A stretch of DNA of 64,000 bases from contig WJKP01000011.1 in NCBI GenBank assembly GCA_014729025.1, forward strand, positions 6,500 through 70,499, written 5' to 3'. Shown here piece by piece: positions 15,170 through 56,057 of this stretch. Position 1 is the stretch's first letter; the number at the start of each line of letters is the position of its first letter. A program made the position numbers and the translations under genes. The notes beneath the pieces are model-generated. The model had not been told where the DNA came from. It ran no database searches and was given only the letters and a program-made list of their open reading frames with translations. The DNA is from Candidatus Buchananbacteria bacterium. GTDB taxonomy: Bacteria; Patescibacteriota; Patescibacteriia; CAIXNZ01.

Positions 15170-15174
15170 AAAAA

Positions 15175-15210
15175 ACAACCCCAATTTAAGGGGTTGTTTT
15201 TGTTTTGTTT
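15175..15210 (+). terminator. Rho-independent terminator after dnaJ
   Basis: AACAACCCC-AATTTAA-GGGGTTGTT followed by TTTTGTTTTGTTT. Confidence 0.7.
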
Positions 15211-18128: not shown

Positions 18129-18169
18129 TATTATATAAAGAAAATTCTAATAGTAATTTAAAATTTATA

Positions 18170-18646: not shown

Positions 18647-18650
18647 AATC

Positions 18651-18851
18651 ATGAGGATTATTAAGTTTAATAAAAAGATATACAGACCTGAAGCAATCAA
18701 ACAAGCGATTAATGATTTTAAAAATTTGGCCAATTTTAAATTAAAAGAAAACAGTGATTATATTGAAATAAAGATAAATAAAATAGATCAGGATTATAAA
18801 GATATTTTAAAAGATGAATTTGCCAATTATGCGCTTGGTTTAATGTCTTAA
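18651..18851 (+). CDS. Small protein, possible HxsD-like component of the His-Xaa-Ser system
   Basis: 66 aa, directly upstream of the SPASM rSAM. C-terminal 'ILKDEFANYALGL' loosely resembles the LLNDYxLRE signature I recall for the TIGRFAMs HxsD family. Weak. Confidence 0.35.
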   Translation: MRIIKFNKKIYRPEAIKQAINDFKNLANFKLKENSDYIEIKINKIDQDYKDILKDEFANYALGLMS

Positions 18852-18887
18852 CTTAAGTAATAAAGGGGTGAAGCAAATATTTAAGCT

Positions 18888-20372
18888 ATGTTGGATTTAC
18901 AAACGATTAAAAAATTAAATGATAAACAGGCCGGATTCTTCCGTTTTAAAAAATTTGAAAATGACAATTATTTATTGACCAATGACATCGGCCATTACAT
19001 TTTTTTGCCAGAAACAGATTTTAAAAAATATATTCATGGCCGACTGGATAAAAAAAGCAAGCTTTATCAAAAATTAAAACAAAAATTATTTATTAAAGAT
19101 GAGGATTACCTTAAAAATTTCATTTGGCAGTATCGTCAGCGCAATTCTTTTTTGAAATACGGGCCGTCTTTGCATATTGTGGTTGTAACTTTAAGATGCA
19201 ATCATCGCTGTATTTATTGTCATGCCAGCGCTGCAACATGTAAAGATAAGAAATACGATATGGATCTAAAAACAGCCAAACTGGTAGTTGATACTATTTT
19301 TAAATCCAATAATAATGCGATTTGCATAGAATTTCAGGGTGGTGAACCGCTTTTAAACTGGCCAGTAGTAGAATTTATTATCAATTATGCTCAGGAAAAA
19401 AACAAATTAGAGAAAAAAAATTTAATTTTTCGGTTAGTTTCCAATTTTACTTTATTAGACCAAAAGAAAATGAATTTTTTAATGACTAATGAAGTTAATT
19501 TTTGTACATCCTTGGACGGTGACGAATCGACTCATAATTATAATCGTATTTTTACTGACGGTAATAGTTATAAAGAAACAGTAAAATGGATTAAAAAAAT
19601 CAATCAGGCTTATAAAGATAAATATAAAGGCAAAAAGAAAAATTATTATCGGGTAGGCGCTTTGATTACAGTAACTCGTAAAACTTTGGCTAATTATAAA
19701 CAGGTTATTGATACTTATATAAAGTTGGGTTTTCGGAACATTTATTTGCGTTATTTAAATCCTTTTGGCTTTGCTTTGCAAGCCAAAGAAAAAATATGGT
19801 ACAATCCTAAAGAATATATTGATTTTTATAAAAAAGCTTTTGATTATATTTTGGAAAAAAATTATCAAGGCAGGCATTTTTATGAAAGCATGGCAGCGAC
19901 TTATTTAAGAAAGATACTAAATCAGGAAGAACCGAATAATTTGGATTTCCGTTCGCCTTGCGGGGCAGTGATCGGTCAATTGGCTTATAATTACAATGGC
20001 GATGTTTATACTTGTGATGAGGGGCGGATGATTGCCAGGATGGGCGGTGATGAGATGTTTAAATTGGGTAATATAAAAAAAAATTCATTGGAAGAATTAA
20101 TTAATAATGATTTGTGTAAATCCGTTTGTTTTGCTTCGTGTGTTGATGGTTTACCGGGGTTTAGTGAAAACGTTTATAAACCTTATTTGGGTATTTGTCC
20201 GGTTTATAATTATTCCGTGCACGGTAATATTTTTCCAGCAATGAAAAATAATTTCCGCTGGCAAATAGATGAAGCAATTGTAGAATATTTATTTACTAAG
20301 CTTCAAAATAGAAAAAATCAGGATATTTTCCAAGAATGGGTCAAAAAATCAAAACCCCCGATTCCCAAATAA
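18888..20372 (+). CDS. Radical SAM/SPASM-domain peptide-modifying enzyme (anSME-like; candidate HxsB-type maturase)
   Basis: 'TLRCNHRCIYCHA' (CxxxCxxC). 'FQGGEPLL'. C-terminal SPASM-like Cys cluster 'SPCGAVIGQLAYNYNGDVYTCDEG...CKSVCFASC...GICPV'. Directly upstream of the repeat peptide. Confidence 0.8.
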   Translation: MLDLQTIKKLNDKQAGFFRFKKFENDNYLLTNDIGHYIFLPETDFKKYIHGRLDKKSKLYQKLKQKLFIKDEDYLKNFIWQYRQRNSFLKYGPSLHIVVVTLRCNHRCIYCHASAATCKDKKYDMDLKTAKLVVDTIFKSNNNAICIEFQGGEPLLNWPVVEFIINYAQEKNKLEKKNLIFRLVSNFTLLDQKKMNFLMTNEVNFCTSLDGDESTHNYNRIFTDGNSYKETVKWIKKINQAYKDKYKGKKKNYYRVGALITVTRKTLANYKQVIDTYIKLGFRNIYLRYLNPFGFALQAKEKIWYNPKEYIDFYKKAFDYILEKNYQGRHFYESMAATYLRKILNQEEPNNLDFRSPCGAVIGQLAYNYNGDVYTCDEGRMIARMGGDEMFKLGNIKKNSLEELINNDLCKSVCFASCVDGLPGFSENVYKPYLGICPVYNYSVHGNIFPAMKNNFRWQIDEAIVEYLFTKLQNRKNQDIFQEWVKKSKPPIPK

Positions 20373-20386
20373 TAAAATATAAATAT

Positions 20387-20839
20387 ATGAAAAATAAACT
20401 TCCCAAATTAAAGAAAAAATTTCAAGAATTTTTAAATGATGAAGAAGGGCGCATTACTAAAAAAGATATTATTATGCTAGGTATTGGCGTGACTGCTTTG
20501 GGTATTTTAGCCGAAGAAGCCGAAGCTTATAATTGCGGGCAATTGCCAGGCGGTTTAAGTAATAAAACCCCCAATCCGTGCGGTTCTCAACCTATGAGGC
20601 CAAATTCGCATACGACTTGCTGTAATATTAAACATTGTGGTAACAATGGTTACGAAAATGACAACTATAATGAGTTAATCGGCGATGTTAATCATAGTTG
20701 GGATCATAATAATTATATTCATAATAATGCCGAGGTTGGTACTCATTGTTCACATGGTTCGCACGGTTCGCATGGCTCGCATGGTTCGCACGGTTCACAT
20801 GGCTCGCATGGTTCGCACGGTTCGCATGGCTCATATTAA
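20387..20839 (+). CDS. His-Xaa-Ser-type repeat peptide/protein (candidate RiPP-like precursor, HxsA-like)
   Basis: Start at MKNKLP (20387). Basic N-terminus, one TM helix '[15 protein letters not shown]', a Cys/Asn-rich middle (6 Cys) and a C-terminal '[28 protein letters not shown]' (nine SHG units). Encoded by a 9-bp tandem repeat with synonymous codon variation. Confidence 0.7.
20749..20835 (+). repeat. 9-bp tandem repeat (about 9.5 copies) encoding the (Ser-His-Gly)n tail
   Basis: tcRcaYggY units: cat/cac, ggt/ggc, tcg/tca alternate. Synonymous variation argues for maintained coding repeats, not an artefact. Confidence 0.9.
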
Positions 20840-20842
20840 TCT

Positions 20843-21808
20843 ATGTCTGAAAAATTTAAATTTTTAGAAATAGTTATTATTTTAACCCGTTCTTGTAATA
20901 AAAAAGAATGTAGTTATTGCCAGGTTAAAAAAGATTATAAAGTTAATAAACTGGAAAATAATTTATACCAATTAATTGAATTTTTGAAAAATAGTCCTGT
21001 AAAATCAGTTAGATTTTTAGGTGGTGAACCATTATTAAAATATAAGAAAATCAAGCAAATAATAAAAAATTTGCCCGATAAAAATTTTATAATCAATACG
21101 AATGGGTTGTTGTTAACTAAAGCCAAATCGGATTTTTTTAAAAAATACAATATCAAAATAATTTTAAGCCATGATGGTCAAGAACCCGATTTAAAAATTA
21201 ACAGATATTATACTGACAAGCAGATTGCGGTTATTAATGAAAATTTAATAAATTTAGAAAATTATCAAAAACAAACACAAATCAATTTAACCGTTTCACC
21301 GCAGACAATTGATAATTTATATAATAACCTGGCTTATATTTATAAGTTGGGTTTTAAAAAAATAAATATTTTGCCGGTTTTTTATCAGAACTGGCCACAG
21401 TCACAATTAAGACTATTAAAATTAGAGTTAAGTAAAATATTGGTTAATTTAAATAAATTCAAACAATTAGAATTGATTAATTTAAAATCATTCAGTTATT
21501 TGCCACTATTTAAAAATAGCTTATTAATAGATTGTGATGGTAATATTTTTTTCAGTACAGCCGTAATTGAAAAATTTTTCCACCAATACCGTAAGGAATT
21601 TATTAAGGCTAATATGATGATTTTATCAGAAAAAAAGAAAAATTATTCTGAGCTAAATTTTAAAGAAATTGAGGATTATAATAAGAAGATAGATAAATTG
21701 ATAATTAATGAGTTTTCTCACACAGTGATAACTTCTACGGAAAAAGTAAACAGGATTTTTGAAAATTTTATTAATAAATATTTAAAGATTAATAAAGCAA
21801 ATCTATGA
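20843..21808 (+). CDS. Radical SAM protein with non-canonical Cx4Cx2C cluster motif (candidate HxsC-type partner maturase)
   Basis: 'LTRSCNKKECSYC' (C-x4-C-x2-C). 'RFLGGEPLL'. 'INTNGLLL'. 4 nt downstream of the repeat peptide. Confidence 0.65.
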   Translation: MSEKFKFLEIVIILTRSCNKKECSYCQVKKDYKVNKLENNLYQLIEFLKNSPVKSVRFLGGEPLLKYKKIKQIIKNLPDKNFIINTNGLLLTKAKSDFFKKYNIKIILSHDGQEPDLKINRYYTDKQIAVINENLINLENYQKQTQINLTVSPQTIDNLYNNLAYIYKLGFKKINILPVFYQNWPQSQLRLLKLELSKILVNLNKFKQLELINLKSFSYLPLFKNSLLIDCDGNIFFSTAVIEKFFHQYRKEFIKANMMILSEKKKNYSELNFKEIEDYNKKIDKLIINEFSHTVITSTEKVNRIFENFINKYLKINKANL

Positions 21809-23304
21809 CACAAAAAATAAAAATTATTACATTGATCATAGTAATGATCATTTTAATTGTTGGCGGTTTATTATTATATTATTTTAAACCTGCTCCAAGT
21901 ATTAATCTGCCACCGCCAGTGGAAGAAGAAGAAAATTTGCAAACTAGATTGGAAAATGTCGTGGATTTTGGTTTTGTTAGTTCACCTTATACTTTGGATT
22001 CTATTTTAGAGTCAAGTGAATATCAGCAAATAAAACAAGAAGTTCATGATATTTGTTATGATGATAAAGGTAATTTGGGCTTGTATTTTTCTTGTTTAAG
22101 AGCTTTTGATACTTTTGCCGCCAATAAAATTAATAATCAATTACTTAATTTAAATCAGACGGATCAGCAGGATTTATTAACTAATTTGTATGAAATAGAT
22201 GAACGTTATGGGGTTCCAAGTCTGGATATTAGAACGCCTGAAATGATTTTTAGGACGCGAGAAGGTCAGGAATTAGTTAATTATTTTGAAGAAAACGCTA
22301 GTTTGGAGGATTTTAATTTTACCAATAATATTAATGAAATTTTTCAGCGCCAGTCTTTTAAAGAATGGTTAGATGATTTTCATGCTAAAAAACGTGAACT
22401 TTGTTATTTTCCTCCAGAAACTGATATTGCCAGAGATTGTGATTCTTTTACCACTCCTTATGCTAGTACTATTGTAATAAATTTTCTTTATCCGGAGAGA
22501 CAAGAAGAAGAAGTATTAAGTCTAGTTGGTGTTTTAGAACGAGGTATTTATAAAAGTGATGAAGATTTATTAGAAATATATAATAATTTATTGAGCCGTT
22601 ATTATAATGATTTTTTAGATAATTATGTTCAGGAAATGAAAAATAAATATCCGATTTTGGCTAGCGGACAAGTTACTGACTTGAATACTATTAATGATTT
22701 TCTCTTAGATCCTAACGATAGTTTAATTTATCAAGTCGGTAAATTATATTATTATGTGAATTATTTACATGTTGGTTCTAAAGGCAAGGTTAGGGATAAG
22801 CTCAACCAAAATTTAAATGATAAATTTGCAGAAGTAGCGGCTGATTTGGGTATTGACAATGACGATTTAAAGCAATATTTAATAGCAATTATTGGAGATG
22901 AAGAAGAAGTTATTGATCAATTAGTTAGTCAGTATAGAAACCTAAAAGTTAATTATCCAGCTAATGTTAATAAACTGGAAATCAATCCTACATTTATTTT
23001 TTGGGAAAGTATGGTCGAAGATCAGTATTATAATTATTTTACTGATGATTTTAATAATATTGATGCTTATTATGATGATTTGCGAACTTATAGATTGTAT
23101 ACTTATCTCTTGCTTTATTATAGCGATGACTATAAAAGTACTACTAATAGACAAGATGCTTTCGCTGAACGAGGTGAAGATGGCGGTCAAATGCAAAATG
23201 TATTTAAATTTAGCCGTTATATTGAAAGAGATGAATTGGATGAATTAATGAATTATTATAATAAAGAAAGAGGAACCATAATTGATTTGAGTGAAGGTCA
23301 TTAA
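21805..23304 (+). CDS. Membrane-anchored hypothetical protein
   Basis: N-terminal TM 'IITLIIVMIILIVGGLLLYYF', then a 470-aa soluble domain without recognisable motifs. Start overlaps the upstream stop (ATGA). Confidence 0.45.
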   Translation: MTQKIKIITLIIVMIILIVGGLLLYYFKPAPSINLPPPVEEEENLQTRLENVVDFGFVSSPYTLDSILESSEYQQIKQEVHDICYDDKGNLGLYFSCLRAFDTFAANKINNQLLNLNQTDQQDLLTNLYEIDERYGVPSLDIRTPEMIFRTREGQELVNYFEENASLEDFNFTNNINEIFQRQSFKEWLDDFHAKKRELCYFPPETDIARDCDSFTTPYASTIVINFLYPERQEEEVLSLVGVLERGIYKSDEDLLEIYNNLLSRYYNDFLDNYVQEMKNKYPILASGQVTDLNTINDFLLDPNDSLIYQVGKLYYYVNYLHVGSKGKVRDKLNQNLNDKFAEVAADLGIDNDDLKQYLIAIIGDEEEVIDQLVSQYRNLKVNYPANVNKLEINPTFIFWESMVEDQYYNYFTDDFNNIDAYYDDLRTYRLYTYLLLYYSDDYKSTTNRQDAFAERGEDGGQMQNVFKFSRYIERDELDELMNYYNKERGTIIDLSEGH

Positions 23305-23401
23305 AATTGATTAATTTCTAATATAAAAAACAGCCATAGATTATGGTTGTTTTTTATATTCAGATTGGGTATTATTATATATAGATTTGATTATTTTATT
23401 T

Positions 23402-24769
23402 ATGCCCCAAAATGAGAAAAAAATATTTAAGCAAAAATTTAAATTTTTAGATAAATATTTAGATTTATATAAAAAAGATTATTTGTCAGAATTTAAACTG
23501 GCCAAGGATTTTGTTTTTGAAAGGCTTAATCGCCGTAAAGAATGTACTTTTGATTATCCCCCTTATGTTTATTATAAAGAGGCAATAGATAAAGATCGTA
23601 ATCCTGATAACTTGTTTGACTTATGGCCGGATAAAACACCTTTTGTTATGTGTTTTTATTTTCCTTTCTGCACAAATAAATGCAGTTATTGTACTTTTAC
23701 AAATTTAAAGAAAAATATTGTCTCAGAATTTTCTGATTATTTGAAATATTATAAAAAAGAACTTTTGATGTATAAAGATTTGATTAAAAGAAATAAAATA
23801 AGCCATATTTATATTGGGGGTGGAACCCCGACTTTAATGACCGAGGAGCAATTAGAAGATTTATTAAAATTTATAAAAAAACATTTTTTACCTTATTTGC
23901 TTAAGCCTTTAGACGAGATAGAGTTTACCTGTGAAGCTTCTCCCCCGACTTTAACCGATAAAAAAATTAAAATATTAAAAAAATACGGTGTTAATACCAT
24001 TACTTTAGGTGTTCAGACACTAGATCCTAAGGTTTTAAAAACAATCGGCCGTTATCAGACAAAAGAACAGGTTATAAATGTTTTGCCTAAAATAATCAAG
24101 CTTTTTAAAGTCAATGTTGATATAATTGCCGGTTTACCAGCTAGTAATTTGCAGATTTTCGCTCAGGATTTAAATACGATAGTAAAATTAAAACCGCAGC
24201 ATTTAGGAGTTTATTTATTGACTTTATATGATCATTCTAAATTAGGTCAGTCTGATTATTATGTGCCACGTAAAGATTATCTGCAATATTATGATTTAGC
24301 TTATAAAACTTTATCAAAACAAGGTTATATTCATAGTACTTTTGAAGAATATTCATTGGATCATAAATATCGTTTAATGTATTTAGAAGATTTTCTGGAA
24401 AATAATCTGCATTTAACTACTGGTTTGGGTGACTCTGGTTTTACCGGAACTCATTGGTATAATAATACTGATGATATGGGTAAATATAAAAATTATATTA
24501 AAAATGGATTATTACCAATAGACAAGAAATATAAAATGACGATTGCGGATTTGCAAGTTAAATTTATTATTTATGGTCTTAGAAAATTAAATTTAAATAA
24601 AAAAGAATACCTTAAAATGTTTAATGAACCGATTGAAAAAAGATATTCTTTAGAAATAAACGCTTTAACTGATTTGGGTTTTTTGAAGCACGAGGGTAAT
24701 AAAATAGATTTAACCTATGAAGGCAAAAGAGATTTTGAGTTGATTATGCAGTTTTTTATGAGACTTTAG
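23402..24769 (+). CDS. HemN/HemW-like radical SAM protein
   Basis: 'FPFCTNKCSYCTF' CxxxCxxC. HemN-family 'IYIGGGTPTLM' (GGGTP) motif. C-terminal HemN_C-like region. Confidence 0.75.
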   Translation: MPQNEKKIFKQKFKFLDKYLDLYKKDYLSEFKLAKDFVFERLNRRKECTFDYPPYVYYKEAIDKDRNPDNLFDLWPDKTPFVMCFYFPFCTNKCSYCTFTNLKKNIVSEFSDYLKYYKKELLMYKDLIKRNKISHIYIGGGTPTLMTEEQLEDLLKFIKKHFLPYLLKPLDEIEFTCEASPPTLTDKKIKILKKYGVNTITLGVQTLDPKVLKTIGRYQTKEQVINVLPKIIKLFKVNVDIIAGLPASNLQIFAQDLNTIVKLKPQHLGVYLLTLYDHSKLGQSDYYVPRKDYLQYYDLAYKTLSKQGYIHSTFEEYSLDHKYRLMYLEDFLENNLHLTTGLGDSGFTGTHWYNNTDDMGKYKNYIKNGLLPIDKKYKMTIADLQVKFIIYGLRKLNLNKKEYLKMFNEPIEKRYSLEINALTDLGFLKHEGNKIDLTYEGKRDFELIMQFFMRL

Positions 24770-25553
24770 GCTCTAGTAAAAGCGAGTTATTAATAATTTT
24801 ATTGAAACGATTTTTTTCTATTTGTCGCGTTGATTTATAGGTTTGAAAATTCCCCTTATAAAATGAAGTATAATATTTATTTGTGAATTGCAATGGCTGA
24901 TTTTGTGGGTTTAGGCAATAATTGGGGCAATTTTTAATTATTTTTAAATAATTATTAGCTTGTTTGATTAAAGCTAGTGGACAAGTTCTACTTAAAGAAA
25001 AAATAATATAAGGTGTGTAAAGATTAATTTTAAGATTTTTAAGATTATCTAAAGCGATTCCTTGGCCCAGATTTTCAAGTTCAATTGTATCAATTTCATT
25101 TTTCAGTAACCAATCAGCAAATAAAGGATTATTAATTACATTATAAGTGCAAATTTTATCAAATTTAGTTTTAAAATGAGCATAATATGGATCTTTTTTT
25201 TGATTAGCAATAAAGATGCCGGCAATTAGTTTAATATTTTTATTTTTCAAATAATCCCACCCCCCCCAATCATTAAAAACTAATTCAAAAATATTTTCAG
25301 CTTGATTATTTTTTATGATTTTAATTATTTTATCTAAGTATTCAAAATAATTATTAGGTAATAAAGGCGTAAGTAAGGTTAGTCTTTTTTTATTTTTTTG
25401 GGATTTTTTTAAATATGATTGAAAAATTTCAGGTTGAGGTAATAAAAATGGGCAAGTATTTGAACCAATATAAAAATTATCATATTTCGGTAAATAAGTA
25501 TCAAATTGTTGAGGTGTTAAAATTTGAATAGCTTGGTTAGTCTTTTGGAGCAT
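24756..25553 (-). CDS. U32-family-like protein (possible UbiV/partner-type subunit)
   Basis: 265 aa. Overlaps the next U32 gene by 17 nt. N-terminal 'FYIGSNTCPF' resembles the start of the second U32 module in UbiU/UbiV-type pairs. Weak. Confidence 0.4.
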   Translation of the reverse strand: MLQKTNQAIQILTPQQFDTYLPKYDNFYIGSNTCPFLLPQPEIFQSYLKKSQKNKKRLTLLTPLLPNNYFEYLDKIIKIIKNNQAENIFELVFNDWGGWDYLKNKNIKLIAGIFIANQKKDPYYAHFKTKFDKICTYNVINNPLFADWLLKNEIDTIELENLGQGIALDNLKNLKINLYTPYIIFSLSRTCPLALIKQANNYLKIIKNCPNYCLNPQNQPLQFTNKYYTSFYKGNFQTYKSTRQIEKNRFNKIINNSLLLEPKVS

Positions 25554-26466: not shown

Positions 26467-26524
26467 AAAATTTATAAGTTTATTATAATTAAATTACTTT
26501 ACTAAGGCAAATAAATTAATCATA

Positions 26525-27862: not shown

Positions 27863-27863
27863 T

Positions 27864-29700: not shown

Positions 29701-29702
29701 TT

Positions 29703-30632
29703 ATGGCAAATTTAGGTTATATTCAATTAAATAGAGTTTGTAATCAAGCCTGTCTTTTTTGTTCCAATCCTGATACTGGGGCAAGCTTAAATTTTATTGA
29801 ATTTAAGGATAAGGTTGCAGATTTGATTAAAAGAAATTATGATGGAGTTATTTTAACCGGCGGCGAGCCGACCTTGATAGATTATTTGCCAGAAGCAATT
29901 AAATTTTGCACTGAGAAGAAAATTAATTCTCGTTTAATTACTAATGGGCAAAATACAGCTAATTTTGAATATTTGAAAAAGTTAAAAGATTCTGGTTTGA
30001 ATCTGATGCATGTTTCTTTATATTCTTATAAAACTAAAATTCAAAATTATTTAAGTCAAAATAATGATTCTTATAATAATATTATTAAGACTTTAAAAAA
30101 TGCAACTAAATTAAATATCGTAATTAATATTAATACTGTAATTAATAAGTATAATGCTGATCATTTGGATAAAACCGTTTTTTTTATAATAAGAAATTTT
30201 CCGCAAATAAAGCATTTTGTTTTTAATAATCTTGACCCATATATGAATCGAGCTTCGCAGAATAAACATACCATACCAGGTTTATTTGATTTTGAAATAT
30301 CATTAAATAAAGCAATGCAAATATTATTTAAAAATAATAAAACTTTTCGGGTAGAACGAGTACCTTTATGTTATATGGGCGATTTTCCGCAGTTTAGCAC
30401 TGAAACAAGAAAAATTATTAAACAAGAAGAAAGAGTTGTTCATTTTTTGGATGAAAAGGGTCTGATTAGGCAGGATACCGATTCATTTAAATATAAAAAA
30501 GGTAAAGTTTGTAAAAGATGTAATTTAAATGATATTTGTGCCGGCTTATATTCTTTAGGTGAATATTTTGCGGAAAAAGAATTAAAGCCTGTCAAGAATG
30601 TTACTAAAGAACAAGTTAAAGCAAAATTATGA
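29703..30632 (+). CDS. Radical SAM protein, tandem paralog 4
   Basis: 'QLNRVCNQACLFCSN'. 'LTGGEPTL'. 'ITNGQN'. C-terminal 'VPLCYMGDF...CKRCNLNDICAGLYSLGEYF'. Confidence 0.8.
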   Translation: MANLGYIQLNRVCNQACLFCSNPDTGASLNFIEFKDKVADLIKRNYDGVILTGGEPTLIDYLPEAIKFCTEKKINSRLITNGQNTANFEYLKKLKDSGLNLMHVSLYSYKTKIQNYLSQNNDSYNNIIKTLKNATKLNIVININTVINKYNADHLDKTVFFIIRNFPQIKHFVFNNLDPYMNRASQNKHTIPGLFDFEISLNKAMQILFKNNKTFRVERVPLCYMGDFPQFSTETRKIIKQEERVVHFLDEKGLIRQDTDSFKYKKGKVCKRCNLNDICAGLYSLGEYFAEKELKPVKNVTKEQVKAKL

Positions 30633-31309
30633 ATATTGATTTATTAACAAAATGCGAATGTAATTGTGTTTTTTGTGATAAGCAGACTGTTAAGGGTGTT
30701 GAATCTATTAATGAACTAAAAGATATTTTGGAGGATTTTAATGAGTCAATAATTTTTTTAGGTGGACAAGAACCATTTAATTTTAAGGATTTAGATTTAT
30801 TAATTGCTTTTTTAAAAAATAAAGCGCCTGATAGCAAAATAATAATAAAATCTTCAGGTTGTTTTGATTATAAAAAATTGCCCCGGGTTTTATTTGAAAA
30901 AATCGAGATAATAGAATTGCCATTATATTCTTGCTCAAGTGAAATACACAATAAAATAATGGGGAATAATCAGGCTTGGGAACTGCTTTTTGCTTTTGTT
31001 GATTTTTTAAAAGAAAATAATTTACAGAATAAAATTTTGTTTCATACAATGGTTTTAAAGGATAATTTTAAAGAATTATTTGCTATTTATGATTTTGTTT
31101 TAGACAATTTACCTGATCAGCAGTATTTTAAGATTATTTACCCCTTGAAAAATATAAGTAAAATAGAATATGAAAAAATTATTGTACCGCAAGATTTAGT
31201 TATTAAGCAGCTATTTGCTGATTTCCCAGAAGATATATTGCAAAATAAAATTGAATTAATAAATTTCCAACCTTCTAAAGAACAAATTAAATTTAGAAAT
31301 GTTTTATAA
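30629..31309 (+). CDS. Small radical SAM-like protein (mini-rSAM, 226 aa)
   Basis: 'LTKCECNCVFCDK' contains CxxxCxxC. 'FLGGQEPF'. No C-terminal auxiliary Cys motif. Confidence 0.6.
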   Translation: MNIDLLTKCECNCVFCDKQTVKGVESINELKDILEDFNESIIFLGGQEPFNFKDLDLLIAFLKNKAPDSKIIIKSSGCFDYKKLPRVLFEKIEIIELPLYSCSSEIHNKIMGNNQAWELLFAFVDFLKENNLQNKILFHTMVLKDNFKELFAIYDFVLDNLPDQQYFKIIYPLKNISKIEYEKIIVPQDLVIKQLFADFPEDILQNKIELINFQPSKEQIKFRNVL

Positions 31310-31314
31310 ATTTT

Positions 31315-33105
31315 ATGAGTCGTGTTGATATAAAAATAGGTTTTGCTTGCAATAATATGTGCCAATTTTGTGTGCAAGGAGATAAAAGGTTTAAATTTAA
31401 AAACCGTACGCTTAATGAAATAAAAAAAGCGTTAAAAACAGCTAACGCGCAAGGCAGTCAGGGGGTTGTTTTTACTGGTGGTGAACCAACATTACATGAC
31501 AATATTTTAGAGGCAGTTAAGTATGCTAATGATTTAGGTTTTCAATCAATTCAGTTGCAAACTAATGGTCGGATGCTGGCTTATTTTGGTTTTTGTCAAA
31601 AATTAATAAAAGCCGGTATAAATGAATTTTCACCAGCCTTGCATGCTTCAATACCCCAAATTCATGATGAATTAACCAGTAGTCCTGGCGCTTGGGAACA
31701 AGTTGTACAGGGTATTAAAAATTTAAAATTATTAAATCAGTTTGTTTTAACAAATACTGTGATAACCAGCAAGAATTATAAAGATTTACCTGCTTTAGCC
31801 AAGTTATTTATTGATTTGGGCGTGGATCAATTCCAGTTTGCTTTTGTTCATATTTTGGGCAGCGCAGCTCAGCATAAAGACTGGCTGGTGCCTCAAAAAT
31901 CAGAGATTATGCCTTACGTAAAAAAGGGGTTAGATGTTGGCATTAAAGCAAACAAGAGGGTTATGACAGAAGCAATTCCGTATTGCTTAATGACTGGTTA
32001 TGAGGATTACATTGCAGAAAAGATAATGCCTGAAACACAAGTTGTTGATGCTGAAGGCGTGATCGCCAGTTATGCTAAATATCGGCATACAGAAGGTAAG
32101 GTTAAGAGCAAAGAATGTGAGACATGCAAATATTTTAAAATTTGCGAAGGTCCGTGGAAAGAATATCCGGAAATTTACGGTTGGAATGAATTTATACCAA
32201 TAAAGAAATTATCAATAAATAAAAAAAAACAAATAAATAATAATTTTAAAAAAAATAAAAATGATATAGCCTTTTTTAATTTTGTTGGTAAATTTAATTT
32301 AATTGATTTTAAGGAGTATTTGCCAAATTTAATCTCATTTAAAATAATAAAAAATGAAAAAAATAGTTATTGCGTATTATTAAAAAATGGCGATGATGAT
32401 GTTTTTTTAAAAACTTATCGATGGCAAGGGAATAAATTTTATAATTTTGTTAAAATTTATAATTCTTTATCAAAAGAAATCAATTTGCCACAGATAATCT
32501 CTATATCTGATTTTGTCGTGCCAGAAACAAATGAAAAAATTTTCCTTGTATTAACTGACTACCTGAAAGATTTGGTTAATAATAAAGATAAATTTAAAGA
32601 AGCAAATCTTAAATTAATAATTGATCAGGTCGTAAGATTGCATCAAATTGATAATGTTATTATTAAAAATAATATGTTTAATAATAAATTTTTTTTAGAT
32701 CAAATGATTATAAAAAATAATCCCATTGATATTAATAAAATCATTTATTATTTAAAAGATAAGCTTGATAAAATTTCAGCCCAGGGTTTGTGTCATTTTG
32801 TTTTAAAACCTGAACATTTTATTTTTAATAAAAATAAAGTATACATGATTGATCTTGATAATATAAGTTATGATTATTTGATATTCGATTTAGCTGCTTT
32901 AATTGAAAGATTTTTATATAAAGATAAATATTCTTATACAAGAAAATATCTAAAAGATTTTGTAACATTATATTTTAAAAAAAATAAAAAAGTTAAATTT
33001 AATAAGAATGTATTGTATCAAGCCTGTAAGTTGATGGCTTATTATCAAAATGGTAGAGCTTTTCAGGATTTTGGACCGCTTGATGAATTTTTCAATGAAT
33101 TATAA
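31315..33105 (+). CDS. Radical SAM (paralog 5) fused to a C-terminal kinase-like (APH/WaaP-like phosphotransferase fold) domain
   Basis: N-terminal domain: 'IGFACNNMCQFCVQG', 'FTGGEPTLH', 'QTNGRML', 'IPYCLM...CETCKYFKICEGPWKEYPEIYGW'. C-terminal 300 aa: 'GLCHFVLKPEHFIF...VYMIDLDNISYDYLIFDLA', paralogous to 34627-35901. The catalytic-loop Asp is replaced (HFV instead of HFD). Confidence 0.75.
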   Translation: MSRVDIKIGFACNNMCQFCVQGDKRFKFKNRTLNEIKKALKTANAQGSQGVVFTGGEPTLHDNILEAVKYANDLGFQSIQLQTNGRMLAYFGFCQKLIKAGINEFSPALHASIPQIHDELTSSPGAWEQVVQGIKNLKLLNQFVLTNTVITSKNYKDLPALAKLFIDLGVDQFQFAFVHILGSAAQHKDWLVPQKSEIMPYVKKGLDVGIKANKRVMTEAIPYCLMTGYEDYIAEKIMPETQVVDAEGVIASYAKYRHTEGKVKSKECETCKYFKICEGPWKEYPEIYGWNEFIPIKKLSINKKKQINNNFKKNKNDIAFFNFVGKFNLIDFKEYLPNLISFKIIKNEKNSYCVLLKNGDDDVFLKTYRWQGNKFYNFVKIYNSLSKEINLPQIISISDFVVPETNEKIFLVLTDYLKDLVNNKDKFKEANLKLIIDQVVRLHQIDNVIIKNNMFNNKFFLDQMIIKNNPIDINKIIYYLKDKLDKISAQGLCHFVLKPEHFIFNKNKVYMIDLDNISYDYLIFDLAALIERFLYKDKYSYTRKYLKDFVTLYFKKNKKVKFNKNVLYQACKLMAYYQNGRAFQDFGPLDEFFNEL

Positions 33106-33111
33106 TTATAT

Positions 33112-34623
33112 ATGATTGATATATATTATAAAAAAGAACTTCAGAGTATTATTGCACCCATGCAGATAGGGCGCCAATATTTTAATTGGGATTTTAAGAA
33201 AATCATTTTAAATCGTATCGGCCCCTATTTTTTACAGGAAATAATTTTTTATTTTTTAAAAGATAATAATAATGCGTTAATGATATATTTGAGAAAAAAT
33301 AATGAATATTATCAATTGGATTACCAAGTTTTAAATGATGAATTATCAGCAAAAAAAATTTTTATTTTATTTGATAATTTATTAATAAAAAAACAAATTA
33401 TTCTTGAAAGAAGTTTAGTTTTTGCAGCCTTGCAAAACAATGAAAAAAATTTTTTAAATCGATTATCTCAAATTGATGAGAAAGAATTAATCAAATTATT
33501 ATCATTACCAGAGATTAAATTTATAAATAATAATGTAGAAGATAGTGATATTAAAATTTTATTTGATTTTAATTTAAATAGTTTTGGCCTTGGCGATTAT
33601 TTGATGAGCGATAGGAGTTTAATTAAAAATGGTTCAAATAATTTTATAATAACTGATTTGTATTCAGTTTTTGAGGGTAATAAAAATTTCAATGCTATTT
33701 ATTCGGATTTGAATTTATGTTTTTCTGAAAATGGGTTATTAGATAAGACCGTTGAACTTATTGATTATAACACCAAGCTTGATTATTTGGATGAAAATTT
33801 AAAAAATACTTATCATTTATTTTTATATAATCAATTTTATAAATTAATAAAAAATTCTTTAAAATTATTTAATTTTAAAGAATACCAGATGAATCCTCAA
33901 AAAGGGATTGATTTGTTATTATCAGAAATTAATAAAATAAAGAAAATAAATATACATTCCTTAGATTCCATGAATGATGAGAAAAATGAATTATATTTAA
34001 ATAATAAAGAATTTATAAAAATTATTGGTAAGCAAATTAAAAAAAATAAAAAAATCATTGGGATTAGCGCAAATTATGCCGAAGGTTTTCCTGATAATGC
34101 GCCTAAAGGCTGGGCCTTGGCTAATTGGTTGGAATTAATTAATTTATTAAGTCAAAAATTTAATGATTTGCATTTTTTTTTATTGCCAGTTAATAATGAA
34201 GATATTTTAAATATAGAAATATCTGAAAATAATTATCATTTTAAAATATTTAATAATTTAAAAGATAAAGTTGATTTGGTTTTTATTGATGAATTGATTA
34301 AAAAATATATTTTTAAAAAAAGCATATTTGATAATATTTTATTAAAAAATACAAGTTTAGAATTTTTAAAAACAGCAATAAGTTTTTGTGATTTGGTAAT
34401 AGCTTTGGATAGTGCTCCGGCTCATATGGCTGCTTCGCTAGAAGTGCCTGTTGTTTCTTTGTTTAGTGAAAAAGGCGATATTAGAAAATTCAAGCCATTG
34501 GGTGATAAATCTTTTACCTTGCATAAAGAAAAAGAAGGGGAATATTTAAATATTAATAATATTTCAGCTCAAGAAGTTTTTGATCTATTAATTAAAGAAA
34601 ATTTAATTATCAAACGAAAATAA
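33112..34623 (+). CDS. Glycosyltransferase family 9-like protein (heptosyltransferase / BAHT-type GT-B fold)
   Basis: C-terminal domain 'KIIGISANYAEGFPDNAPKGWALANWLELINLL...LVIALDSAPAHMAASLEVPVVSLFS' matches the GT9 donor-binding motif (D-S/T-G-P-M-H-L-A-A-A...P-V-V-A-L-F-G). The N-terminal 300 aa are divergent. Confidence 0.55.
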   Translation: MIDIYYKKELQSIIAPMQIGRQYFNWDFKKIILNRIGPYFLQEIIFYFLKDNNNALMIYLRKNNEYYQLDYQVLNDELSAKKIFILFDNLLIKKQIILERSLVFAALQNNEKNFLNRLSQIDEKELIKLLSLPEIKFINNNVEDSDIKILFDFNLNSFGLGDYLMSDRSLIKNGSNNFIITDLYSVFEGNKNFNAIYSDLNLCFSENGLLDKTVELIDYNTKLDYLDENLKNTYHLFLYNQFYKLIKNSLKLFNFKEYQMNPQKGIDLLLSEINKIKKINIHSLDSMNDEKNELYLNNKEFIKIIGKQIKKNKKIIGISANYAEGFPDNAPKGWALANWLELINLLSQKFNDLHFFLLPVNNEDILNIEISENNYHFKIFNNLKDKVDLVFIDELIKKYIFKKSIFDNILLKNTSLEFLKTAISFCDLVIALDSAPAHMAASLEVPVVSLFSEKGDIRKFKPLGDKSFTLHKEKEGEYLNINNISAQEVFDLLIKENLIIKRK

Positions 34624-34626
34624 TTT

Positions 34627-35901
34627 ATGGAAATTGGGATTAGAGATAAAAATGAAAACGATTTAGTCAAAAAAATTATTAATTATAATAAAATTAATAA
34701 TTTAGTAAAACCGATAAAAAGATATGAAATTACGGCGATTGATTTGGTTAATAAAAATTTATATTTAAAAATAAAAAATAACGAGACAGGTGATGTTTTG
34801 CGAATAGTTTTAACTACCAATAAGAGGAAAGATTTATTAAGTATAGATAATAAATTGTTTTTTTACTATTACTCAGATTATTTGAATAAATTTGATAATT
34901 TGCTTTGTAAAAATATAATGAAAATCATGTATAGTAATATTAATAATAATCGAGAATTATTTAATACTGCCATTGATTTAATAAAAAATGAAAATATTTT
35001 TGATAGAGATTTTGAATATTTTGAGGATGAAGATACCGGGCGTAAATTACAAGTAAATAAAAAAAATATAGCGAAATTAGAAAAAAATATTAATTTAAAT
35101 TTAATAAAAAACAAATGGCCCAATATGAATGTTGCTAATGAAATATTTAGTTATGATGAAACAAGACTTCGTTATAAATTAATTGATAAAAATAATCAAG
35201 CTTATTTTTTGAAAATTTTTACCGGTGCCAATAATGATATTGATAATTTAATAAAAATAAATAAATTATTAGCTGATAAAATAAATGTGCCGAAGGTTAT
35301 TGATTTTCAAAAAGATGATAAGTTTTATTGGGTATTATATGAATTTTTAGATCCCGCCAAGATTCTTGATAAACAAAAAATAAATTTAGCAGTTAAAGAA
35401 ATAGTAAAATTTCATAATGTTAAGTTTGATATGGGAAATCAACCAGAAGGTAGTAAATTTAATAAAGTTAAAAATAATTATTATTTATATAAAGAAGAAA
35501 TTATTGATAAGGATATTTTAGAAAAAGCATTAAATTATTTGCAGAATAATCTTGGCCCAAAAGGTTGGTGCCATTTTGATTTAGAAATGAGGCATTTTAT
35601 TTATTCTAATGATAAAATGTATTTAACTGATATTGATTCTATTAAATATGATTATATAGTTTTAGATCTCGGTTTATTTATTCGCTATTTACTTAAAAAA
35701 AATCAGTCGCATTTCATAGCGCCATTAATTGAATTATATTTAAAAAATAATAAGTCTTATAAATTTGATAAAAAAATATTATTTTATGCCACTATTATTA
35801 TGGTATATTATAAAGAGGATGAAAATTTAATTAGTAATCATAATTTACATAAAAATTTGAATCAAGAAATTAATTTAATTAGAAATTATTTTAATATTTA
35901 A
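34627..35901 (+). CDS. Kinase-like protein (APH/WaaP/Kdo-kinase-like phosphotransferase fold)
   Basis: 'GWCHFDLEMRHFIYSNDKMYLTDIDSIKYDYIVLDLG' gives H-x-D catalytic loop plus a DID metal-binding motif. Paralogous to the C-terminal domain of the rSAM fusion. Confidence 0.5.
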   Translation: MEIGIRDKNENDLVKKIINYNKINNLVKPIKRYEITAIDLVNKNLYLKIKNNETGDVLRIVLTTNKRKDLLSIDNKLFFYYYSDYLNKFDNLLCKNIMKIMYSNINNNRELFNTAIDLIKNENIFDRDFEYFEDEDTGRKLQVNKKNIAKLEKNINLNLIKNKWPNMNVANEIFSYDETRLRYKLIDKNNQAYFLKIFTGANNDIDNLIKINKLLADKINVPKVIDFQKDDKFYWVLYEFLDPAKILDKQKINLAVKEIVKFHNVKFDMGNQPEGSKFNKVKNNYYLYKEEIIDKDILEKALNYLQNNLGPKGWCHFDLEMRHFIYSNDKMYLTDIDSIKYDYIVLDLGLFIRYLLKKNQSHFIAPLIELYLKNNKSYKFDKKILFYATIIMVYYKEDENLISNHNLHKNLNQEINLIRNYFNI

Positions 35902-35903
35902 AT

Positions 35904-37412
35904 ATGATACAATTAATTATAAATTATTCTATTGTTTCGCTTATTATTATAATAGGTTTGATAGTTACCCTTACTGATTTTCGAGAAAGCAGAATAAAGA
36001 ATAAATATATTAAATTAGGGATTTATATAGGGTTAATTTATTATATTATATTATTTTTCATTACTGTTTTGTCGCGTTTTTATGCTTTATCTTATTATTT
36101 CCCCCCTCAATATTATTTATTTATTTTAATTAATACTTTAATTGGTTTTATTTTGGCTTTTATTTTGTGGAATCTTAAATTATGGGCCGGAGGCGATGCC
36201 AAGCTTTTTACCCTTTATGTTTTTTTAATACCTTTATTTTTTTATTCAGAAGCATATTTGCCATTTTTCCCAGCTATTAATTTATTAATAAATATAATAA
36301 TTCCTATTTTTATTTATTTATTAATTAAGATGTTAATTTATCCAATCAGCTTATTTATTAGTCATTTGAAAAATCCCAAATTGGTCAAGGAATATTTTAA
36401 AAAACATAGAGAACAAAATAAGTTTGATAAATCAAAAATAAAAGAATATCTAAATAGTGGTCTTAGTTTTTTATTAATTTTAATTTTTTTCCAATTATTA
36501 AGAAATAAAGTTAATGAATTTTTAGATCCTTATTTGGGTAATATGGTTTATGCCACTTATTTTTTTATGGGTTTTGTTATTTTTAAACCATTGAGAGTTT
36601 TTTTAAAAGAAAAAGTTTTGCTTGTTTTAATTGGTGTATCGGCTTATTTTATTATTAGTTACTTTTATTTTCATGAACAGGTTTTTGCAGAATTGCATAA
36701 AGTTTTTGCCTTGCAAATGATTTTTATGATGTCTTATTTTTATATTTTTAAATATGGCCGAGCTTTGGGACAATTTTTATATAATTCAGCAGAAGTTAAA
36801 ATGGTTCCGGTTGAAGAATTAAGTTCTGGCAATTATATTAATAAAGGTTACATAAGAAAAATAATGGGGAATAGGAATAATTTAGATAATTTCAAACAAG
36901 ATATTGAAAATGTTTTGTCAGAAGAAGAACATAATAACTTAGCCCAATTGATTGAGGAAAAGGTGGGGCAAACTGGTAATGAAAAAAAACAATATAAGAT
37001 AATTTCTGTTTTCAGGAATTTACGTCCAGAGAGTGCTTTTAAAATTGCAAAACAGATATTTGAATATAAAAAACAAAAAAAACAAAGAAAAGAATTACTG
37101 GAAACAGTAAAAATAAAATTAAATGATAAGCAGAATAAGACCTTAGATAATATTTTAAATAACAATGATGATATTGATAATTTTTTAAAAAAAATTAAGG
37201 GGAAATTAAGCGAAGAACAAGCTCTAAGATTAAAAAGCATGATTGAAGAAAGGAATAAAGAGGTTGAGGATCAGGGCTTAGAGCCGATTAAACATATTAT
37301 ACTTCATAAAACATTTTCTTTTGCGCCTTTTATGTTATTGGGCGTTATAATTACTTTATTAACCAAAAGTTCAATTATTCATTTGATTTATGAATATATT
37401 TTGCACCGTTAG
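35904..37412 (+). CDS. A24-family (prepilin peptidase/TadV-like) aspartic peptidase homolog with long C-terminal Lys/Glu-rich coiled-coil domain
   Basis: First catalytic-Asp motif 'LTDFRESRIKN' (cf. D-L-R-x-R-R-I-P-N). Second 'LWAGGDAKLFTLYVFLIPL' (cf. GGGDVKLL). About 8 TM helices in the first 290 aa, then a 200-aa charged cytoplasmic tail and a final TM helix. Confidence 0.6.
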   Translation: MIQLIINYSIVSLIIIIGLIVTLTDFRESRIKNKYIKLGIYIGLIYYIILFFITVLSRFYALSYYFPPQYYLFILINTLIGFILAFILWNLKLWAGGDAKLFTLYVFLIPLFFYSEAYLPFFPAINLLINIIIPIFIYLLIKMLIYPISLFISHLKNPKLVKEYFKKHREQNKFDKSKIKEYLNSGLSFLLILIFFQLLRNKVNEFLDPYLGNMVYATYFFMGFVIFKPLRVFLKEKVLLVLIGVSAYFIISYFYFHEQVFAELHKVFALQMIFMMSYFYIFKYGRALGQFLYNSAEVKMVPVEELSSGNYINKGYIRKIMGNRNNLDNFKQDIENVLSEEEHNNLAQLIEEKVGQTGNEKKQYKIISVFRNLRPESAFKIAKQIFEYKKQKKQRKELLETVKIKLNDKQNKTLDNILNNNDDIDNFLKKIKGKLSEEQALRLKSMIEERNKEVEDQGLEPIKHIILHKTFSFAPFMLLGVIITLLTKSSIIHLIYEYILHR

Positions 37413-37434
37413 ATATTTTTGTTAAAATATAGTT

Positions 37435-55800: not shown

Positions 55801-56057
55801 ACTGTTTCTTTCCCTTACGGGAAACTGTATTAAACTTTGTACTCTTTTATAAAGACTGTTTGCTATGGTTCTTGTAGAACCTAGTAATAGTATACCAAAT
55901 AGCCCTTTTTTATGTCAAGTTTTTCATTATAATAAGTAGATAAATTGTAGATTAAAACGCTTTACTTAAGCTTAAAAATATATTATAGTATTAACAAATT
56001 GAATATATGTATATAGACCTAAACCATTTGTATTTTACAGTTGGCATGGTCTCAAAA

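Follow-up and report, generated by a model that had tools for sequence, protein, structure and literature searches.

What is made by a locus in which nine radical S-adenosylmethionine (rSAM) genes are packed around the gene of one small repeat protein? The locus lies at 18.1-37.4 kb of a 64,000-nt stretch of DNA (the window; positions 6,500 to 70,499 of contig WJKP01000011.1, assembly GCA_014729025.1). The contig belongs to a metagenome-assembled genome (MAG) of Candidatus Buchananbacteria, Patescibacteria, and a host of the candidate phyla radiation (CPR) had rightly been supposed in a preliminary description made from the DNA letters. Analysis of the open reading frames (ORFs) and hidden Markov model (HMM) searches showed that the region encoded HxsD, HxsD_rel, HxsB, a protein with a (Ser-His-Gly)x9 tail, nine rSAM enzymes, a U32-family protein and its partner, a GT9-like protein, two kinase-like domains and an A24 protease. 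From its gene content, the locus is probably one extended His-Xaa-Ser (Hxs)-type maturation pathway that acts on the repeat protein and consists of a pair of conserved modules together with tailoring genes that vary. The first module would consist of HxsD, HxsD_rel, HxsB and the repeat protein as an HxsA-like precursor. The second would consist of three HxsC-like rSAM paralogues (T6, T1, and T4), with one auxiliary-cluster motif each, and an A24-type GxGD membrane protease. The accessory set, specific to this lineage, would include the paralogues T2, T3, and T5, a 321-aa rSAM, a HemN-like enzyme, the U32 protein with its partner, the GT9-like protein, and the two kinase-fold domains.

The 18 ORFs between 18.1 and 37.4 kb were all intact, with stop and start codons coupled or neighbouring genes overlapping by a few bases; the preliminary description of real, tightly packed genes, nine of them rSAM genes, was thus borne out. 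From 15.2 to 37.4 kb, the tightly packed ORFs lay on the plus strand nearly throughout, with antisense exceptions at 24756-25553 and 25537-26466. The gene order (D-Drel-B-A-rSAM-TM-HemN-like and onward over 18 genes; TM, transmembrane) differed from the canonical D-B-C-A. The Pfam model Radical_SAM scored above its cut-off in nine genes (39.6-87.6 bits vs. 29.5). The features were as follows, with scores in bits:

15262-15780, plus strand: clade-specific polytopic membrane protein of 172 aa, first gene past the dnaJ terminator; no family match
15791-16435, 16443-17243, and 17256-18128, plus strand: three secreted proteins, each with a Sec-type signal; no family match
18170-18646, plus strand: HxsD (TIGR03976, 58.8 vs. 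cut-off 50)
18651-18851, plus strand: HxsD_rel, 66 aa (NF038315, 81.4 vs. cut-off 41)
18888-20372, plus strand: HxsB, radical SAM/SPASM protein (TIGR03978, 514.9 vs. cut-off 370; SPASM, 25.3 vs. cut-off 21.5)
20387-20839, plus strand: HxsA-like precursor (HxsA3, 45.3, below 65; HxsA4, 48.9, below 55)
20744-20832, plus strand: DNA repeat coding for the (SHG)n tail, found by Tandem Repeats Finder (TRF)
20843-21808, plus strand: rSAM of 321 aa with a Cx4Cx2C motif (Radical_SAM, 49.8)
21805-23304, plus strand: orphan protein of 499 aa with an N-terminal TM helix; no family match
23387-24769, plus strand: HemN-like rSAM (Radical_SAM, 87.6)
24756-25553, minus strand: U32 partner of 265 aa; no family match
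25537-26466, minus strand: U32-family protein, TrhP/UbiU-like (Peptidase_U32, 101.4 vs. cut-off 22.4)
26525-27862, plus strand: T1, HxsC-like rSAM, 445 aa (HxsC, TIGR03977, 127.9, below 267.9)
27864-28751, plus strand: T2, HxsC-like rSAM, 295 aa (best family HxsC/HxsC4, below cut-off)
28738-29700, plus strand: T3, HxsC4-like rSAM, 320 aa (HxsC4, 179, below 500)
29703-30632, plus strand: T4, HxsC-like rSAM, 309 aa, with orthologues in the close clade and across phyla
30629-31309, plus strand: T5, rSAM of 226 aa (Radical_SAM, 39.6; HxsC, 46.2)
31315-33105, plus strand: T6, HxsC4-like rSAM (aa 1-295) with a kinase-like C-terminal domain (HxsC4, 159.9)
33112-34623, plus strand: GT9-like protein (Glyco_transf_9, PF01075, 41.2 vs. 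cut-off 22)
34627-35901, plus strand: APH-like/CotS-like kinase-fold protein (APH, PF01636, 37.4 vs. cut-off 23.2)
35904-37412, plus strand: A24-family GxGD intramembrane aspartyl protease (Peptidase_A24, PF01478, 28.2 vs. cut-off 26.5)

HxsD, HxsD_rel and HxsB all exceeded their NCBIfam cut-offs, which agreed with the earlier assignment of the core to the His-Xaa-Ser system. The small HxsD-like ORF that had been reported upstream of HxsB (18651-18851) was real and was HxsD_rel, while the true HxsD (18170-18646) lay just 5' of the point at which that description began. The HxsD ORF opens at a TTG codon at 18098, and the Met at 18170 is the likelier start; HxsD orthologues in the close clade shared 56-67% identity. 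A protein identical to the window HxsB carries the name HxsB at NCBI. The window HxsB was 36% identical to the HxsB of an Aeromonas plasmid, whose hxsDBCA locus was used as the canonical comparison, and homologues at 62-86% identity were found in Uhrbacteria, Falkowbacteria, Parcubacteria, and unclassified Patescibacteria. Two rSAMs beside the repeat gene had been proposed as the paired enzymes of the system; 18888-20372 was indeed HxsB, but the 321-aa enzyme at 20843-21808 was rejected as HxsC (29.9 bits vs. 267.9).

The precursor consisted of a conserved K-rich leader and a short hydrophobic segment, after which came AEA, a Cys-rich middle of variable sequence, the motif HNNYIHNN, and a (SHG)x9-SY tail with nine perfect His-Gly-Ser units. 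In the TRF analysis, the DNA of the tail had a period of 9 bp (9.6 copies) and a period of 27 bp (3.0 copies, 96% matches), and the units differed synonymously. Translation probably starts at 20387 and not at 20336, because the N-terminus from 20387 was conserved in orthologues. The N-terminal 43 residues aligned to HxsA3 and the tail aligned to HxsA4. In the close clade, the leader was nearly the same in all orthologues and the Cys-rich middle varied; the motif HNNF(I/V)HN(E/D)G..GSHC and 7-10 SHG units were kept. The repeat ORF was present, together with the rSAM array, in every related locus that covered its position.

Beyond the close clade, 47 distinct leader-plus-(SHG)n proteins were found beside HxsB in CPR, Elusimicrobia, Omnitrophota, Myxococcota, and others, with the leader consensus K(L/I)PxIKKxIKxFLxSEEGKIxKK shared across several phyla. 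Proteins of this class had a short hydrophobic stretch, mostly followed by A-x-A, and 2 to 50 SH[G/S/A] units (most 4-23); most of them ended in GQW, GSW, GWC, or GSY. In the short homologues, the mature part hardly went beyond Cys-(SHG)n-Trp/Tyr. The sole invariant Gly of the precursor (SEEG|K) lay 8-10 residues ahead of the hydrophobic stretch. The precursor had been called membrane-tethered, and the hydrophobic stretch was present; since it is short and an A-x-A follows, a cleavable signal peptide is equally possible.

These features could also be read as a conventional cluster for a peptide that is made by the ribosome and modified post-translationally (RiPP), in which a diffusible antimicrobial, signal or metallophore would be released from the (SHG)n tail. 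A leader combined with rSAM/SPASM maturases and a protease is the usual RiPP logic, the A-x-A past the hydrophobic stretch points to release from the membrane, the short homologues are nearly reduced to the Cys-(SHG)n-Trp/Tyr form, and the many His residues of the tail would bind Ni, Zn, or Cu. However, neither an ABC exporter nor a C39 peptidase nor an immunity gene was found in the locus by HMM searches, and there is a single precursor gene, for a protein of ~150 aa. The locus is passed on vertically at a fixed chromosomal site in tiny genomes. The sole characterised relative, HxsA, acts in a wall-anchored form (PMC13128918), and a released peptide is therefore considered very unlikely.

The rSAM enzymes other than HxsB were examined for family, motifs, and orthologues. 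The best NCBIfam families of T1-T6 were HxsC or HxsC4, with the top scores reached by T1 for HxsC and T3 for HxsC4. The cluster-binding cysteines and the GGEP motif were retained in every rSAM. As had been anticipated, the additional enzymes were not housekeeping proteins, and MoaA, QueE, and anSME were rejected with scores far below their cut-offs. Prokaryotic viperin (pVip, NF038283) was also rejected, since the best score was 75.5 (T2) against a cut-off of 180 and structural matches with a template modelling score (TM-score) of about 0.6 are generic; PADLOC 2023 gave weak pVip-model matches of 47-71 bits, corresponding to generic rSAM cores, and no Hxs model. The cyclophane-forming (triceptide) maturases were excluded by their scores as well [GrrM/OscB: 40.2 (cut-off 310); YhhB: 51.4 (cut-off 445); AmcB: 25.8 (cut-off 425)].

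In tblastn searches, T1, T2, T3, T4, and T6 each had an orthologue of its own in the related loci (36-74% identity), which indicates old paralogues and no recent amplification. The auxiliary Cys pattern PxC ... CxxCx5C was invariant in 21 T2 homologues and could also be read in T1, T3, T4, and T6. Seven cysteines were invariant in T2 (C14, C18, C21, C226, C266, C269, and C275; CxxxCxxC + PxC...CxxCx5C), which fits one auxiliary cluster. T2 was largely clade-specific, with 20 homologues at E < 1e-20 besides the protein itself among 5.8 billion clusters. Its AlphaFold2 (AF2) model had a pLDDT of 89.3, and the Foldseek neighbours at a TM-score of about 0.6 were viperin-like enzymes, SuiB, BlsE, MoaA, anSME, and DesII; these neighbours were generic and did not discriminate between a peptide and a small-molecule substrate.

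T1 had the best HxsC score of the six paralogues and was 27% identical to canonical HxsC, its best match; by reading, its CDDCKYNNQC matched the C-terminal CDDCx5C of canonical HxsC (CDDCASKAVC). T3 aligned over the entire HxsC4 model and had close-clade orthologues at 46-51% identity. T4 was the most conserved of the tandem paralogues (55-58% identity in the close clade, 44-50% across phyla), with the signatures MANLGYIQxTRxCNQxCxFCSNP, ERVPLCYM, STETRK, and CxxCx5CAG. The rSAM part of T6 was 62-74% identical within the clade and scored 315-391 bits across phyla. T5 was without the C-terminal cysteine motif and had just weak similarity elsewhere (21-26%). The 321-aa rSAM contained CNKKECSYC (Cx4Cx2C) and no auxiliary-cluster cysteines; its best NCBIfam model was PapB (89.7, cut-off 340), and its counterparts in loci L001 and L009 were weak (26-28% identity). 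The description of 23387-24769 as HemN-like held at the superfamily level: the protein was below the cut-offs of all equivalogs [STM4012: 166 (380); HemW: 146 (205); HemN: 138 (325); HemZ and ChuW also below], and the HemN_C domain scored 17.2 (cut-off 24). HemN-like genes recurred in many other Hxs arrays, such as L003, L008, L012, L023, L065, and L082.

The neighbourhoods of the close clade (L001-L012 and L091) were compared with the window. Taken together, they showed one syntenic locus, which twelve related Patescibacteria loci carried between dnaJ (rpsI in one case, L002) and cysS, dus, corA. The shared order was dnaJ, a membrane protein of 172-177 aa, three secreted proteins, HxsD, HxsD_rel, HxsB, the repeat protein, a TM protein, the rSAM array, the A24-like gene, cysS, dus, and corA. 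The array was always located between the Hxs core and cysS, and the number of rSAMs varied, from 7 in L004 and L006 to 13 or more in L003, where B12-binding and MiaB-like types were included. Cysteinyl-tRNA synthetase (CysRS) was 48-72% identical across the related loci, which corresponds to deep divergence. Fixed synteny over such a distance favours a stable, lineage-wide function over a mobile island.

The 172-aa membrane protein and the three secreted proteins preceded HxsD in the seven related loci that reached that far upstream. The membrane protein was 75-78% identical in L001, L002, L004, and L006, and all four proteins were kept in L002, where rpsI takes the place of dnaJ upstream. The secreted proteins carried ordinary Sec signals and were fast-evolving, with orthologues at 31-44% identity in L001, L002, L004, L006, L011, and L012; in L002 and L011, Laminin_G_3 proteins (723-756 aa) stood in place of the last of them (17256-18128). 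The C-termini of the last two contained Cys (..VLCCYLNIAF and ..MVCCRIDNCPGGGGNCF). These four proteins may belong to the system or be its partners at the surface, a suggestion that for the 172-aa protein is based on synteny only.

Several local differences were seen in the same loci. A 23S_rRNA_IVP (four-helix-bundle) gene was located between HxsD_rel and HxsB in L001 (9624-9977), L002 (9554-9901), L004 (4357-4704), and L009 (2484-2831), and there was none in the window. Scattered PDDEXK_3 genes occurred in L001 and L002. In L006 (8299-8865) and L010 (2695-3234), the T1 and T4 orthologues were separated by an inserted IS200-like Y1 transposase gene. Between the repeat gene and T1, the relative L002/L008 (L002 13604-17230; L008 2070-5696; 566-kb contig) contained unannotated gaps and pieces of rSAM genes (74-84 aa), which look like local gene decay in an otherwise intact array. 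Several Parcubacteria-type loci [L012 (CAZHFK010000007.1), L014-L018, L022, and others] came from MAG records labelled "uncultured Gammaproteobacteria" or "Candidatus Saccharibacteria"; these labels look like binning or labelling errors.

The A24-like protein was a conserved terminal component of the array. Its Asp motifs TDFRESRIKN and WAGGDAKL were conserved in 16/16 Hxs-linked homologues aligned, and it was 50-57% identical in the clade and located directly 3' of T4 in many loci of other phyla. It had a C-terminal extension of ~370 aa, and no Pfam methyltransferase domain was detected. Compared with the A24 enzymes that process type IV prepilins and Flp/Tad pilins, both catalytic Asp motifs were present, and the putative substrate likewise had a basic N-terminus followed by one hydrophobic helix; unlike those systems, the window locus had no pilus genes.

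The antisense genes had been described as two U32-family proteins. This was correct for 25537-26466, whereas 24756-25553 had no Pfam, NCBIfam, or PDB match and aligned with its neighbour at a marginal hhalign E of 0.014; its single-sequence AF2 model was unusable (pLDDT 44), and a PDB sequence search with both antisense proteins was empty. The U32 protein had the cysteine pattern CX6CX14C...CX2C and scored below the cut-offs of TrhP (90.8, cut-off 534) and UbiU (80, cut-off 440). The U32-family pairs UbiU-UbiV and TrhP/TrhP1-TrhP2 are O2-independent hydroxylases. The window genes resemble these pairs in the two-gene setup and in one clear U32 protein with UbiU-like Cys spacing (CX6CX14C...C), but the window partner was without a detectable U32 signature. 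Homologues of the partner adjoined a U32 gene within the Hxs arrays L022, L061, L063, and L120. The pair is embedded in rSAM arrays at five loci and so may act on a peptide, or it may be an RNA hydroxylase with a housekeeping role.

The GT9-like, second kinase-like and A24-like proteins were recovered as described earlier, each above its Pfam cut-off. For the GT9-like protein, the match was confined to the C-terminal ~100 aa (model positions 165-227 of 247), and the heptosyltransferase equivalogs scored 22-28 bits (cut-offs 135-467). No homologue but the protein itself was found in the search of 5.8 billion clusters, and no match was found in L001-L089 and L091. The APH-like protein contained HFDLEMRH (catalytic HxD) and LTDID (metal-binding D) and was rare, with 8 relatives among 1.84 billion representative proteins; the best of them was at the T6|A24 junction of L091. 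The reported fusion of an rSAM with a kinase-like domain was supported in that the C-terminal domain of T6 was 32% identical to the APH-like protein (paralogues), while its own APH score was below the Pfam cut-off (19.6 vs. 23.2). This domain had Val at the position of the catalytic-loop Asp (HFVLKPEH), and for this reason it is possibly a pseudokinase. It had no match in L001-L089, and its sole alignment in L091 was with the APH-like gene, which is separate there. T6 orthologues of 563-604 aa had C-terminal extensions without similarity to the window domain (hhalign probability 0.1%) and without a Pfam match; a few kinase-like motifs were visible by eye, and homology is not claimed. The 499-aa TM protein had no homologue in L001-L089 (E <= 1) and none in any of the loci recovered; in relatives, its slot was filled by a TM protein of 277-305 aa, and the L001 version showed an N-terminal TM helix.

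At the T6|A24 junction of L091, the APH-like gene was next to a duplicated N-terminal fragment of the A24 gene, which is read as a trace of recombination; ThiF-like and Orn/Arg-decarboxylase-like genes were also present in that array (L091 361-3508 and 8525-10452). This arrangement indicates that the junction collects accessory genes. In L001, the same junction held a weak GT1-like gene. The preliminary description had given weight to sugar- and phosphoryl-transfer enzymes in the array. They were present; on the searches above, however, the system is not defined by the GT9 protein, the 499-aa protein, or either kinase-like domain, all of which are accessories of this lineage alone.

The GC content was 0.21-0.29 over 18000-38000 of the window and 0.32-0.39 in the flanks, with the minimum of 0.21, the lowest value of the whole window, at 32-36 kb (kinase/GT9/kinase). 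This raises the possibility that the array is partly decaying or non-functional, as a duplication relic in a low-GC, fast-evolving region. The GT9-like and 499-aa proteins without homologues, the APH-like protein with eight, the Val in the T6 kinase-like domain, and the rSAM fragments in L002/L008 would agree with decay. Against it, all 18 of the 18 ORFs were intact, no rSAM had lost its cluster cysteines or GGEP motif, and T1-T4, T6, and the A24 gene had conserved orthologues; decay of the array is thus regarded as highly improbable.

GTDB species representatives were scanned with an alignment of HxsB. At least 588 HxsB-encoding loci were found, and the best 79 were kept, two of them from the close clade and 77 distant. 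In the 77 distant loci, ORFs within 10 kb on either side of HxsB were counted after profiling with the window proteins. The distant HxsB proteins (39-53% identity) came from other CPR groups, Elusimicrobia, Omnitrophota, Myxococcota/Polyangia, Spirochaetes, and unclassified bacteria. Three or more rSAM-like ORFs were near HxsB in 44/77 loci and five or more in 30/77, with a maximum of 12. HxsD_rel was found in 37/77 loci, an A24-like gene in 10/77, and a U32 gene with its partner in 3/77. The orthologues of T1 and T4 in distant phyla scored 240-320 and 273-329 bits, respectively; beside HxsB, T6, T1, and T4 were usually in that order, often with the A24-like gene next. In two loci of Gracilibacteria (L045 and L048), HxsB and its neighbours looked fragmented under translation table 11; as this group probably reads UGA as Gly (code 25), the ORF counts for the two loci are underestimates.

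A metagenome scan centred on T4 yielded at least 329 relatives, in which T6, T1, and T4 were mostly together, often with A24 directly downstream. In 12 of the metagenome loci, the contig reached 8 kb or further to each side, and about 7 of these had Hxs core genes within 10 kb. On this distribution, T6, T1, and T4 with the A24-like protein form an ancient, separable module.

Some of these observations weigh against one pathway acting on the repeat protein. In 4-5 of the same 12 metagenome loci, the T6-T1-T4-A24 module occurred without HxsB, HxsD, or HxsA within 10 kb. The stand-alone loci (L102, L107, L108, and L128) were high-GC metagenome contigs with the order T6-T6-T1-T4-A24 and no HxsB, HxsD, or repeat gene within that distance, and the module may accordingly have another or an additional substrate. 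The two antisense genes break the plus-strand array, which is thus not a single operon. The cut-offs of HxsC and HxsC4 were reached by no gene of the window, and the precursor was below those of HxsA3 and HxsA4. The T2 model was equally near the nucleotide- and sugar-modifying rSAMs (viperin, BlsE, MoaA) and the peptide-modifying SuiB. No Pfam peptidoglycan-binding domain, which canonical HxsA needs for defence, was found in the precursor. The precursor also had no prepilin-type cleavage motif G|F(T/M)LxE, and the substrate of the A24 protein is therefore a guess.

The same observations raise the alternative that two unrelated systems lie side by side, namely the Hxs core (18.1-21.8 kb) and an rSAM/A24 cluster (26.5-37.4 kb) that would act on a nucleotide, sugar, lipid, or other membrane protein, with the GT9 and kinase-like proteins serving glycan or envelope chemistry. 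The occurrence of the module alone in the four metagenome loci, the division of the array by the antisense genes, the viperin-like, BlsE, MoaA, and DesII neighbours of the T2 fold, and the weak PADLOC pVip matches all speak for it. However, dozens of loci spread over several phyla had the module next to HxsB, HxsD, and a gene with HxS repeats, and the best HMMs were HxsC/HxsC4 and not viperin or MoaA. T1 shared the CDDCx5C motif with HxsC, and in the clade the array was never found away from its place between the Hxs core and cysS. Two separate systems are accordingly judged unlikely, and a single extended Hxs-type pathway is preferred.

How does such a pathway compare with the system that has been studied? 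In E. coli, the canonical hxsDBCA genes, characterised in 2026, form an antiphage system that blocks the entry of phage DNA (PMC13128918). HxsA is its periplasmic effector and binds peptidoglycan through a domain required for defence; HxsB, HxsC, and HxsD are needed for HxsA to be processed at its N-terminus, HxsC binds HxsD, and matured HxsA carries an rSAM-dependent +8 Da on its SHRSS motif (PMC13128918). The earlier statement that no product of an Hxs system has been characterised is thus outdated. The chemistry of HxsB and HxsC was not reconstituted and the N-terminal protease was not identified in that study (PMC13128918). It placed 99.7% of HXS systems in Pseudomonadota and found the four-gene order D-B-C-A in 99.6-99.8% (PMC13128918); canonical HxsA was the search query, and the figure for Pseudomonadota is explained by this query.

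The window locus is like the canonical systems of E. coli, Klebsiella, and Aeromonas in having bona fide HxsB and HxsD, a small exported protein with tandem His-Xaa-Ser as the presumptive substrate, and, by reading, the C-terminal HxsC motif in T1 (canonical CDDCASKAVCC). It differs in having six HxsC-like paralogues, none above the cut-off and all without the N-terminal extension of ~110 aa of the 401-aa HxsC, and in adding three further rSAMs, HxsD_rel, and a dedicated A24 protease. Canonical HxsA combines five HRS/HSS repeats with a plain signal peptide and a C-terminus that binds peptidoglycan, whereas the window precursor has a leader and a (SHG)9 tail. The canonical systems are often plasmid-borne, whereas the window locus is chromosomally fixed in a CPR lineage. 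NCBIfam contains the variants HxsA3 (NF038309), HxsA4 (NF038313), HxsC4 (NF038332), and HxsD_rel (NF038315), of which only HxsD_rel scored above its cut-off here; curators therefore already knew non-canonical Hxs systems, and no above-cut-off model was available for T6, T1, T4, or the linked A24 protein.

The rSAM maturases of RiPPs (PapB of ranthipeptides, the SCIFF maturase, SuiB, GrrM, and YhhB) share the logic of a leader and an rSAM with auxiliary Fe-S clusters, and HxsB has a SPASM domain; however, all of their models scored far below cut-off (PapB: 123.9 vs. 340), and the substrate here is a protein of ~150 aa with an export signal. To our knowledge, the number of rSAMs for a single precursor is far above that in described RiPP clusters. 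A literature search found no publication on multi-rSAM or CPR variants of Hxs. The earlier statement that no system with this architecture has been described therefore holds for the literature searched; the architecture is nevertheless not a one-off, since multi-rSAM arrays beside HxsB are common outside Pseudomonadota. The extended multi-rSAM Hxs locus is not unique to the window genome and, as far as could be found, is undescribed.

In the preferred extended Hxs-type pathway, the HxsD-type proteins and HxsB would bind the leader in the cytoplasm. HxsB and the HxsC-like enzymes would then modify the His-Gly-Ser units and the HNNxxHNxG motif by radical chemistry, comparable to the +8 Da on SHRSS in E. 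coli HxsA. The accessory enzymes might add lineage-specific tailoring in the form of C-methylation, O2-independent hydroxylation, and Ser phosphorylation or glycosylation. After export, the N-terminal region would be cut off by the A24-like protease, by signal peptidase, or by both; the processing step left unassigned in the E. coli study could be the work of the A24 protease.

By analogy with HxsA, the product could be a His-rich layer in the envelope that serves for binding or as a barrier, possibly against incoming phage DNA, an idea that we entertain with clear reservations. The variable tailoring set, the fast-evolving middle region of the precursor, and the neighbouring secreted proteins would suit an arms race. 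On the other side, synteny fixed over deep divergence is unlike that of mobile defence islands and weakens the analogy with defence. A broader picture is more speculative still, and as a whole it is rather doubtful: up to nine rSAMs, and elsewhere 13 or more, might act in sequence on one poly(His-Gly-Ser) tail and yield a densely cross-linked or derivatised His-rich polymer that is released by the GxGD protease. T6-T1-T4-A24 would then be the ancestral core and the proteobacterial four-gene HXS a reduced offshoot, and in Patescibacteria the polymer might be a standing envelope component, such as a barrier to phage DNA, a host-contact layer, or a metal-handling layer.

The regulatory and flanking regions were also inspected. 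The promoter scan gave 141 sites against 132 expected and was uninformative in this AT-rich DNA; the sole convincing signal was the terminator past dnaJ, a hairpin-like structure at 15171-15201. An Rfam search had no match within the locus. Elsewhere in the window, a LOOT RNA (RF03000; 79.6 bits, gathering threshold 46.4) was found on the plus strand at 56016-56142, just 5' of a 726-aa ORF (56189-58369). Past cysS, a 180-aa ORF at 38849-39391 resembled class I methyltransferases, and its best model, an archaeal protein-lysine N-methyltransferase, scored 45.5 (cut-off 200). L003 also had a 180-aa gene at the matching position. This ORF is probably an unrelated housekeeping gene.

HxsB-based systems are widespread well beyond Pseudomonadota, and most of the best 79 loci depart from the four genes of the published system. 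The chemistry of HxsB and HxsC could be approached in several ways through the extended variant, which has a simpler, perfectly repetitive (SHG)n substrate, a sharply conserved leader, and a candidate protease. Its loci also form a natural graded series of 3 to 13 rSAMs. That an organism with a very small genome (one related contig, near-complete, measures 566 kb) spends about 20 kb on one modified protein implies an important function in the envelope.

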